Below are positions 59,518-62,642 of a DNA stretch of 64,000 bases, in pieces. Position 1 is the first letter of the stretch, and every line of letters starts with the position of its first letter. Origin of the DNA: Leptospiraceae bacterium (GTDB taxonomy: Bacteria > Spirochaetota > Leptospiria > Leptospirales > Leptospiraceae); contig JADJSX010000013.1 in assembly GCA_016711485.1 (NCBI GenBank), positions 150,889 through 214,888 on the forward strand. The letters are read 5' to 3'. Both the position numbers and the translations under genes were made by a program. The notes under the pieces are model-generated. The model saw only the letters and a program-made list of their open reading frames with translations, was not told where the DNA came from and searched no databases.

Positions 59518-60586
59518 ATGGCAAAAAAATACAAAGGTTCTCTCACTCTCGAATGGAAAAATAAAAATAAATCTATCATTCTCCAAGAGGAAGGAGAGAA
59601 CAATAGAGATTCTGATACTCCCTTAGATACAAAACTGCATTGGGTCAATGAAGAAGAATCCCTTTATTATGAACTGGACTCAGAAAAAGGAAAAGGGAAA
59701 AAAGCCTATTGGGTAGATAGAAACGATATTCGTGTGAAAGAAGTTCGTCCCTTGTTACACCAAGCGACATACACGGCGAAACCGCAAGTCGTATCAGTAG
59801 AGAAAGGTCGCGACCGTTCTCTACTGGAAGATCCATCCAATCAAGAAATAGAATATAAAATAGAAGAGACAAATGTTCCCTTCGGCTCCGCTCAGGGAAC
59901 AAACCCAGAGGAAACGAATGGAATGTTAATCAAAGGCGATAATCTCTTAGCCTTAAATGCCTTAGTCAAACACTTTGAAAATAAACCAGAAGAAGAAAAA
60001 CCAAAATGTATTTATATTGATCCTCCGTATAATACTGGCTCTGCATTCGAACACTACGATGACAACATGGAGCATAGCGAATGGCTTACTCTTATGCGAG
60101 ATCGGCTAATACTGCTTAGGCAGCTGTTGAGAGAAGATGGGACTTTGTGGATTTCAGTTGATGATGATGAAAGTCACTATATGAAAGTGTTATGTGATGA
60201 AATATTTGGTCGTATGAACTTTGTTGCGAATGTCGTATGGCAAAAAAAATATTCCCCACAAAATGATGCTAAATGGTTTAGTGATATGCATGACCATATT
60301 TTAATTTATGCAAAAAACAAAGAAGGTTGGCGTCCCAATTTATTGTCGCGTACAGAGGAGCAAGATAAGGCATATAACAATCCGGATAAAGATCCAAGAG
60401 GGCCTTGGAAGTCTACCGATTCTACTTGTAATAAATCAAATATCGAAAGACCAAATTTATATTATGCAATGATAAATCCCCATACAAAAAAAGAAATTTG
60501 GCCTTTAGAATCTAGAGTTTGGCGATATGCAGTAAGTGTTCACCTTGAAAAAGAAAAGGATAATCGAGTTTGGTGGGGTCTAGATG
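59518..60586 (+). pseudogene. Type III Mod-like beta-class N6-adenine DNA methyltransferase, 5' part (interrupted by IS)
   Basis: LIKGDNLLALNAL...CIYIDPPYNTG (motif IV first) as in Type III Mod; reading frame continues across the IS into 61776-62642. Confidence 0.8.
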
Positions 60587-61775
60587 TAGGGCAAACGCAT
60601 TAAAAAAGAGACTTGTACAACTGGATGGAAAGAAAATATTGTTATGAATGAACGAACAGTTAAACATATACGAACATTTTAATGAGCTAATTGATCCGCG
60701 AATAGAGCGAGGAAGAAAGCATTTACTAGTAGATATAATATTTGTAGCAATCGTTTCCATCATAAGTGGAGCGGACGATTGGAATGAAATAGAAGAGTTT
60801 GGTAATTTGAAAATAGAATGGTTGCGGAAATTCATAAAGTTAGAGAATGGTATTCCATCGCATGATACATTTAATAGAGTCTTTTCGCTGTTAGACCCTA
60901 AAAAGTTTTCTGAGTTGGCGATGGAATTATTTAATCCGAATATCGTAGAAGGTTTAGATTTAATTTCAATAGATGGGAAAACTGAAAGACGTTCGGTCGA
61001 TAAAAAGAACAATAAATTTCCAATTCATATTGTAAGTGCGTGGTCAAGTAGAAATGGAATTTCACTTGGACAAATAAAAGTAAATGAGAAAAGTAATGAA
61101 ATTACAGCGATTCCTGAATTGCTTTCTCAGATAAAAGTGAAGAATAGCATTGTATCTATTGACGCAATGGGCTGTCAGAAAAAGATTACAGAAAAGATTA
61201 TAGAGCAAAAAGGCGATTATGCGATAGCCTTGAAGGAGAATCAACCGACAGTGTATAAAGAGGTTTTGAATTATTTTGAGCAACAATTGCTTTCTGGATT
61301 TGAAAGGGTAAATGTCGGTTATTCAATGACAGAGCAAAAAGGACATGGTCGAATTGAAAAAGAGAATACTGGCTATTATCCGATATTGATTGGATTTCTA
61401 AGAAAGACGAATGGAAGGGATTAAAAAGTGTAGGAATGGTTCGTTCCGAGCGAGAATACCAAGGAAAAAATCTATAGAGTCTCGATATTTTATTTCTAGT
61501 TTAACTAACCCTGAACTTTTTCAGAAATCTGTAAGAACTCATTGGCAAATTGAAAACTCTTGTCACTGGATTTTAGATGTCGTTTTTCGAGAAGATGATA
61601 GTCGAATTCGTGCTGGCTACGCTGCCGAAAATTTTTCCATCATCAGAAAAATTGCTCTAAATTTCTTGAAGAATGATACCACAATTAAGATTGGAGTAAA
61701 AGGAAAACGACGCGCCGCAGGATGGGATGATAAATATCGCAGTAAAATCATAGGTTTTTAAATGCGTTTGCCCTA
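60587..61775 (+). mobile_element. ISAs1-family insertion sequence inside the methyltransferase gene
   Basis: Perfect 15-bp terminal IRs tagggcaaacgcatt / aatgcgtttgcccta; flanked by 10-bp direct duplication ggtctagatg (60577-60586 and 61776-61785). Confidence 0.85.
60648..61761 (+). pseudogene. ISAs1-family transposase with two frameshifts
   Basis: N-terminus LIDPRIERGRKHLLVDIIFVAIVSIISGADDWNEIEEFG...PSHDTFNRVF and C-terminus RYFISSL...THWQIENSCHWILDVVFREDDSRIR are ISAs1 signatures; frame changes near 61380 and at the A6 run 61464-61470. Confidence 0.75.
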
Positions 61776-62642
61776 GGTCTAGATGGAAAAAATAAAGTAC
61801 CAGCCTACAAAACATTCTTATCAGAGGTAAGGCAAGGGACAACTCCTGTAACAGTTTGGACATACGATGAAGCAGGTCATAATCAATTGGCAAGACAAGA
61901 ATTAAATTCTATTATTGAAAAAAATGTCTTCGCTACGCCAAAACCGGAACGTCTAATCCAGCGAATCCTCCACATAGCCACCAACCCCGGCGACACTGTC
62001 CTAGATTGCTTCGGTGGAAGTGGCACTACCTTTGCGGTTGCCAACAAGATGGGACGCAAATGGATTGGGGTTGAGATTGGAGATCATGCGGATACTCATA
62101 TTATACCGCGAATGAAAAAAGTAATTGCTGGCGAAGACCAATCGGGAATCAGTAAAGCTGTAAACTGGAAAGGTGGGGGAAGTTTTTCTTATTTTCATTT
62201 GGGTCAGTCCATCATTAGTATCAACAAAAAAGGTGAGCCTGATTTTAATTGGAAATTAGGTAGAGCCGAATTGGAAAAGTCTCTTTTACTGACGTATGAT
62301 TTTATAGTAGAGGACACTTCGATACGCCAGCGAAAAGATGCCGGCACTCAGCGTCCGAATTCTTCCTATACAATCGGTTATAAAACTAAAAATGGAAAAC
62401 GAATTTGTGGATTAGCTTCCTTATCTGAAGATCCAACCATTTCCAATACAAAAGGAGAAATTGAAAGTCCAGGAGAGTTTATGAGTTATATGGAATTTGT
62501 TGGACTCTTAAAAAAGATTGAACCGTCCGATTTTATTTATCTTTATACAAACCGAGGCATTGAGATTTCTTCCAATGAAATCCCTGAGAACATGGAGATT
62601 GTTAAAGTTCCAACTGCTATTTTTCAAGAATTAGAAGAGTAA
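61776..62642 (+). pseudogene. Type III Mod-like methyltransferase, 3' part (motif I)
   Basis: FATPKPERLIQRIL...VLDCFGGSGTTFAVA (FxGxG AdoMet motif after DPPY = beta class); in frame with the 5' part once the IS and one TSD copy are removed (VWWGLDGKNKVPAYK). Confidence 0.8.

Follow-up and report, generated by a model that had tools for sequence, protein, structure and literature searches.

The 64,000-nucleotide stretch analysed here (positions 150,889 to 214,888 of the forward strand of contig JADJSX010000013.1, assembly GCA_016711485.1; hereafter the window, with positions counted from its first letter) comes from an uncultured Leptospiraceae bacterium. Close to its right end it carries the gene for the modification subunit (Mod) of a Type III-like restriction-modification (R-M) system, and this gene is interrupted by an insertion sequence (IS). 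According to our reading, to which we assign a probability of about 0.88, a new member of the ISAs1 family recently transposed into mod, splitting the encoded protein with predicted loss of function, and the resident copy of the element, as sequenced, is defective in its own transposase. Taken as such, the knockout of a gene by a mobile element is an ordinary event and well understood.

The IS occupies positions 60587 to 61775 on the plus strand, i.e. it has the same orientation as mod, and measures 1,189 bp. It is delimited by terminal inverted repeats (IRs): the sequence TAGGGCAAACGCATT is found at 60587-60601 on the plus strand and at 61761-61775 on the minus strand, and has no other match in the 64-kb window when two mismatches are allowed (0.12 matches expected by chance). 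Beyond these perfect 15 bp the IR can be lengthened to 20 matching positions out of 21, spanning 60587-60607 on the left (plus strand) and 61755-61775 on the right (minus strand). Directly adjoining the IRs on both sides is an exact 10-bp direct repeat, GGTCTAGATG, which occurs in the window only at 60577-60586 and 61776-61785 (0.04 expected by chance) and allows no extension by even one base in either direction. These are the left and right copies of the target-site duplication (TSD), the left one corresponding to Mod codons G354, L355 and D356 plus the first base of G357. A 29-nt inverted arm returned by the repeat search is an artefact of the palindrome TCTAGA within the duplicated target, and a promoter and terminator scan around the IS gave no signal above chance.

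The limits of the element are also given by two independent copies on metagenomic contigs, L001 and L002, which were found via the closest intact transposases and share 87.6 % and 78.6 % nucleotide identity, respectively, with the IS of the window. In both, homology starts at position 60587; it ends at 61775 in L002 and 3 nt further on in L001, where GGT matches by chance. Only one of the two, L002, has readable flanks: it adjoins an OMP_Lepto gene, i.e. an unrelated context, and is bordered by a 10-bp duplication of its own, AAGACGAAGC. Since both copies share the same ends in other contexts and L002 has its own 10-bp duplication, the segment 60587-61775 has every appearance of a self-contained mobile element whose insertion duplicates 10 bp of the target. 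We infer its mobility from the differing contexts of the copies together with the TSDs.

Both halves of the interrupted gene are still open. The N-terminal fragment (59518-60603, plus strand) comprises amino acids (aa) 1-356 of Mod followed by five IS-encoded residues (VGQTH), and carries motif IV, DPPY (aa 168-171), and most of the target-recognition domain (TRD); its TAA stop (60601-60603) is supplied by the left IR, five codons into the IS. The C-terminal fragment (61776-62642, plus strand) is in frame from the right TSD copy, where it repeats G354-D356 before aa 357-641, and carries motif I, FGGSG (aa 432-436), and the C-terminal domain. Deleting 60587-61785, i.e. the IS and one copy of the duplication, gives an open frame of 1,926 nt for 641 aa, reading ...RVWWGLDGKNKVPAYK... 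across the junction. The restored protein matches Pfam N6_N4_Mtase with 165 bits and the PADLOC MTase_III models with up to 434.7 bits, its best solved relatives being the Helicobacter pylori Type III Mod 6k0w (164 bits) and EcoP15I Mod (107.6 bits). It is colinear with more than 100 full-length homologues, and against those of 600-640 aa it aligns without gaps across the junction, at a conserved WWGxDGxNxxPxLKxFL block. The motif order DPPY ... TRD ... FGGSG is that of a beta-class Type III Mod forming N6-methyladenine.

In the phmmer alignment the insertion site corresponds to about residue 369-371 of EcoP15I Mod, i.e. inside its TRD (aa 263-384), where the distal lobe (aa 319-376) ends (PMC4490356). 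The third stretch of this alignment is weak when taken alone (E = 0.46); that region is also spanned by the alignment with 6k0w (136.8 bits). In P0002 and P0003, the closest relatives, it is again the central region that diverges, with both flanks conserved, which is the pattern expected of a swappable TRD.

We propose that an ISAs1-family element transposed into the mod gene of this Type III-like locus, that integration took place through staggered cuts 10 bp apart and thereby duplicated GGTCTAGATG, and that the landing point was the region encoding the distal end of the TRD. Mod would thus have been split into an N-terminal fragment with the catalytic DPPY, lacking motifs X and I-III as well as the C-terminal domain, and a C-terminal fragment with the FGGSG motif for S-adenosylmethionine binding and the C-terminal domain, lacking DPPY. 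Judged by these motifs, neither piece could methylate DNA. In EcoP15I, the TRD of one Mod protomer recognises the sequence, while the C-terminal domain of the same protomer contacts the restriction subunit Res (PMC4490356). Since DNA recognition in Type III systems resides in Mod, the mod-null allele should, by analogy, abolish restriction as well as methylation, and the silencing of restriction would explain why the cell tolerates the insertion. The insertion itself appears to be recent, since neither the IRs nor the duplication contain a mismatch and the two halves of mod are still open and conserved.

With 1,189 bp, the element is slightly shorter than what we take to be the usual size range of the ISAs1 family. 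Joining the three reading-frame segments of its transposase gene gives a repaired protein of 371 aa that matches NCBIfam NF033564 (ISAs1 family transposase) with 401.5 bits over model positions 1-314 of 314, the cut-off being 70 bits, and the Pfam pair DDE_Tnp_1_assoc (105.6 bits) and DDE_Tnp_1 (67.3 bits). Eleven uninterrupted database proteins, each exactly 371 aa long, are 75-87 % identical to it over 100 % of the length; all of these are unnamed metagenomic copies. Among plasmid-borne elements, the nearest named ones found are ISAsp2 of Anabaena sp. 90 and ISCysp7/ISCysp8 of Gloeothece citriformis PCC 7424, at 45-48 % aa identity. By these comparisons the element would be a new, previously unnamed ISAs1-family member with a single 371-aa DDE transposase. 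The hallmarks of the family are an IR of 14-22 bp starting with CAGGG and a 10-bp direct repeat (PMC11946415); the IR of the window IS is inside this length range and starts with TAGGG, one base off. Compared with the family and its namesake, ISAs1 of Aeromonas salmonicida, the element is alike in its single DDE transposase with the DDE_Tnp_1_assoc and DDE_Tnp_1 architecture and a full NF033564 match, in its size of ~1.2 kb, in its terminal IR of 15-21 bp and in the 10-bp target duplication, and differs in the TAGGG ends and in the twice-frameshifted transposase gene.

Reference genomes contain at least 120 exact occurrences of the 19-nt IS end TAGGGCAAACGCATTAAAA (L005-L124), the hosts among the matches listed including Saprospiraceae, Pyrinomonadales, cyanobacteria, Leptospiraceae and others, i.e. 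members of the Bacteroidota, Acidobacteriota, Cyanobacteria, Spirochaetota and Proteobacteria. The few complete elements among the listed matches encode transposases that are full-length protein matches with less than 50 % identity to that of the window. No close internal relative of the IS is present among these at least 120 listed matches, for which internal DNA similarity amounts to only 73-76 % over the first 140-256 nt at seven loci, three of them identifiable as contigs of one Leptospiraceae metagenome-assembled genome (MAG). Many of the listed matches are 120-140 nt away from a contig end, as is usual where a repeat has broken an assembly.

In these respects a preliminary description of the locus, made from the sequence alone, can be upheld. 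Its perfect 15-bp IRs were recovered by repeat and pattern searches, its exact 10-bp direct repeat is unique in the window and abuts the IS ends, and its ISAs1-family assignment agrees with the NF033564 score, the Pfam pair and the type of IR and 10-bp repeat. Likewise, removal of the IS with one repeat copy does restore the Mod frame, as a 641-aa open reading frame (ORF) colinear with homologues, and the insertion does lie between motifs IV and I, mapping into the EcoP15I TRD. The proposed inactivation of the methyltransferase, and possibly of the whole system, is supported by the split of Mod and, for restriction, by the analogy with EcoP15I.

The transposase gene is distributed over three frames. 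Segment 1 (60648-61424, plus strand) is an ORF of 258 aa that is homologous to other transposases up to ~61361 (aa 1-238, with the invariant D109 and D172) and then runs out of frame to a TAA. At frameshift 1 (61357-61362, plus strand) one base is missing, the window reading GAAAA-AGAGAA where the intact copies read GAAAAGAGAGAA and GAGAAAAGAGAA. At frameshift 2 (61465-61470, plus strand) the window has A6 where L001, the closest intact copy, has A7, and an in-frame TAG follows at 61475-61477. Segment 3 (61471-61761, plus strand) encodes aa ~275-371 in the third frame, including the invariant HWQIENSCHW block with E303, and its stop (61759-61761) overlaps the perfect right IR by one base. Relative to L001 and L002, both frame breaks are thus 1-nt deletions, one in the A5 run 61357-61361 and the other in the A6 run 61465-61470. 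As sequenced, translation from 60648 ends at 61422-61424 and the middle segment ends at 61475-61477. Across the two sites the repaired protein, with GHGRIEKREYWLL and YQGKKSIESRYF, agrees exactly with the consensus of its intact relatives. Based on their conservation, D109, D172 and E303 probably form the catalytic triad. Because the deletions separate D109 and D172 from E303, this copy, as sequenced, should be incapable of making active transposase.

Here the preliminary description has to be corrected in part. It had placed the two frameshifts near 61380 and at an A6 tract: two exist and the second is where it was said to be, but comparison with the intact relatives puts the first in the A5 run 61357-61361, ~20 nt further upstream. 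It had also called the transposase decayed. The frame is indeed broken twice; apart from the two 1-nt deletions in A-runs, however, the gene is free of decay and conserved like its intact relatives, and an assembly error is a live alternative. Finally, a copy with a broken transposase is non-autonomous and not necessarily immobile, as had been thought probable: its perfect ends might still be used in trans, so that it could move only with transposase supplied by another copy, and a contig of NCBI assembly GCA_020051655.1 (L003) breaks off in the IS as at a repeat.

Several observations weigh against our account as a whole or against parts of it. Both frameshifts are single-base deletions in A-runs, which is a typical long-read error. 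A third homopolymer-linked frameshift is found in an unrelated gene of the window, encoding a DUF6962 membrane protein, which is split into the overlapping ORFs 41346-41921 and 41857-42207 (plus strand); the overlap holds a T7 run, and joining the ORFs raises the Pfam match from a partial 21.1 bits to 34.4 bits over positions 9-192 of 198. Moreover, the transposase shows no excess of unique substitutions at otherwise invariant positions (2, compared with 2-5 in ten of the eleven intact relatives). At the DNA level no IS-free allele was recovered: neither the empty site nor a near-identical IS copy turned up in two scans of metagenomes and one of viral sequences. The k-mer of the empty site would be GGTGGGGTCTAGATGGAAAAAA; the exact 22-nt empty-site pattern had no match in JGI metagenomes or viral contigs, nor did a 32-nt IS-internal pattern beside frameshift 2 in metagenome or viral collections. 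The best Mod homologue in a BLASTP search with the repaired Mod is only 63 % identical, and the pre-insertion state is therefore deduced from protein colinearity only. Lastly, the loss of restriction is argued from EcoP15I biochemistry, the res gene being outside the window.

The first three of these points belong to the alternative that survives best, namely that the insertion is real and the frameshifts are assembly or consensus errors, i.e. homopolymer under-calls in a repeated element that were beyond repair by polishing. The IS would then encode an intact 371-aa transposase and be fully autonomous. We regard this as a serious contender, at somewhat less than even odds. Two 1-nt deletions in A-runs and a further frameshift linked to a T7 run would be expected under it, as would a gene that is otherwise conserved like its intact relatives, and the perfect IRs and TSD imply that there was little time for decay. 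In addition, the window runs right through an IS at which short-read assemblies break (L003 ends 125 nt inside it), which suggests a long-read assembly. Residual homopolymer errors in such assemblies tend to persist in repeats.

The other homopolymer runs speak against this alternative. When runs of 5 nt or more within the long ORFs of the window are counted, 2 of 13 are hit in the transposase gene, whereas in the remaining long ORFs 1 of ~558 is hit and ~557 are undisturbed (Fisher p = 0.0014). The two halves of mod hold their frame through 19 such runs, four of them of 7 nt or more, and 2,350 nt shared with two independent contigs, L003 and L004, are identical, including 25 such runs. The enrichment in the transposase gene is significant, though a polishing failure confined to repeats would give the same pattern. 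All in all, the balance tips slightly towards the two deletions in the transposase gene being real mutations. Exact look-up gave no record for the truncated products of 258 aa and 116 aa or for the Mod fragment of 361 aa.

It is very unlikely that the frame changes are programmed, with the A-runs causing the ribosome to shift by -1 or the transcript to slip, so that a low level of full-length transposase is made. Recoding of this kind is known from the IS1 and IS3 families. In its favour, each of the two shifts goes in the -1 direction, and the second coincides with a sequence of slippery-heptamer form, A_AAA_AAT in the incoming frame. However, efficient slippage usually takes longer runs than A5 or A6, and two separate recoding events would be required. 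Above all, the eleven closest relatives, as well as L001 and L002 at the DNA level, have one more base at each site and encode the 371 aa in a single unbroken ORF; since all close relatives encode the uninterrupted ORF, the shifts are not conserved in the clade, and with intact relatives that do without them we reject programmed frameshifting. The ISAs1 family description consulted (PMC11946415) makes no mention of recoding. As a novelty, slippage decoding of two -1 shifts is also less likely than the three-component R-M system considered below.

Independent assemblies cover the right side of the insertion. A search with the HTH-M78 gene downstream of mod returned two contigs identical to the downstream sequence of the window: L003, which is 100 % identical across the right IS/mod junction, and L004, which starts in the C-terminal fragment of mod. 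Neither reaches the left junction. Positions 1-125 of L003 correspond to 61651-61775 of the window, i.e. the contig ends 125 nt inside the right IS end; because an assembler stopping at a repeat gives such a contig end, about one k-mer long, this suggests that the IS is multi-copy in the GCA_020051655.1 sample. A look-up of the upstream helicase for other strains returned no record. The DnaE of the window shares 96 % aa and 84 % nt identity with that of a Leptospiraceae MAG (68 % with Leptospira species); this MAG is not syntenic beyond dnaE, and no empty site was found there.

That the segment is native or domesticated, with mod always having been two genes around a transposase-like gene and the repeats being coincidental, would fit the failure to retrieve an empty-site allele, but is effectively refuted by the exact direct repeat abutting perfect IRs, by the colinear frame that excision restores, by the presence of the same element with the same ends in unrelated contexts, such as next to the OMP_Lepto gene in L002, and by the uninterrupted state of related mod genes from the same family and habitat (L125 and L128).

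The surroundings of the interrupted mod gene are more elaborate than a plain Type III cassette. Directly upstream, a gene for a 928-aa UvrD-type superfamily 1 helicase fused to a PD-(D/E)XK nuclease (56729-59515, plus strand) ends 2 nt before the start of mod. Downstream, between mod and res, lies a gene with HTH_3 and Peptidase_M78 domains (ImmA/IrrE-like; 62699-63832, plus strand), followed by the start of a 182-aa gene without Pfam match (63819-64000, plus strand) that is cut by the window end and complete on L003 (2169-2717). Past the window end, L003 continues with the rest of the 182-aa protein and the start of a ResIII-domain gene, of which the first 256 aa, located ~380 nt beyond the window end, constitute the evidence for Res. 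Relatives have full mod-res cassettes, their Res genes ranging from at least 927 aa to 1,090 aa. The R-M system is therefore larger than was seen in the preliminary description, with a putative canonical Res beyond the window end.

Of the PADLOC models, only those of GajB-like proteins and DRT helicases match the helicase-nuclease. A helicase-nuclease of this type is present alongside Mod and Res in a Leptospiraceae MAG and, in a compact arrangement, in Winogradskyella marincola; in another Leptospiraceae MAG it follows the cassette on its downstream side, and on the L128 contig it was not seen. Its linkage to this Mod subfamily and Res (L125, L129 and L130) reaches other phyla. In Leptospiraceae relatives, small modules are found between the core genes, i.e. 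a 76-aa gene with PIN, DarT with Macro, and MNT with HEPN. The window and L128 have in this slot the HTH-M78 gene followed by a protein of 182 aa (window and L003) or 190 aa (L128:4289-4861), the two being 53 % identical. Their LIDTN...TEDKDM pattern looks PIN-like and may point to a toxin-like partner.

The locus resembles EcoP15I (Mod2Res1) and the H. pylori Mod (PDB 6k0w) in having a beta-class N6-adenine methyltransferase with DPPY ... TRD ... FGGSG and a ResIII-domain gene downstream. In contrast to the EcoP15I type, mod and res are separated by the HTH-M78 gene and the 182-aa gene, the UvrD/PD-(D/E)XK helicase-nuclease lies directly upstream, and mod is disrupted. Nesting as such has a documented parallel in DarTG2, which is found within a Type I system in enteropathogenic Escherichia coli (EPEC; PMC12255303). 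Similar to that case, toxin-antitoxin-like pairs stand between the R-M genes of relatives, and the HTH-M78 gene with its small partner stands in the slot of the window; here, however, the host system is Type III-like rather than Type I.

It is tempting to speculate that the IS hit an undescribed three-component relative of Type III R-M systems, in which the helicase-nuclease would work together with Mod and Res. Winogradskyella has the three genes in a compact row, in the order helicase-nuclease, Mod, Res; in Leptospiraceae they are found repeatedly at a single locus, with toxin-antitoxin-like modules nested interchangeably among them. Nevertheless, we consider such a system rather unlikely.

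Two features elsewhere in the window deserve mention. The gene for tRNA-Ser(GGA) at 22161-22246 (plus strand) overlaps the listed GTG start (22168) of a 491-aa ORF (22168-23643), the true start of which must therefore be further downstream. Further upstream, a truncated DDE_5-type transposase ORF of 267 aa (20215-21018, plus strand; Pfam 142 bits) appears to be left over from another IS that is unrelated to the first. We considered the pair 19910-20263 and 20215-21018 as a further frameshift and rejected it, the upstream ORF being unrelated and the DDE_5 gene merely truncated.

The main value of these results lies in annotation: mod should be annotated as one IS-interrupted pseudogene and not as two methylase genes, and the three transposase ORF pieces as one ISAs1-family gene. 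They are also a reminder that homopolymer frameshifts in repeats of long contigs need confirmation at the read level before decay is called. The neighbourhood, with its helicase-nuclease, Mod, nested modules and Res, may merit separate study as a defence-island architecture, and should the three-component system be real, the disrupted locus would represent a natural mod-null allele of it. For Type III systems in general, the insertion would illustrate how such a system may be switched off safely, i.e. through Mod rather than through Res.

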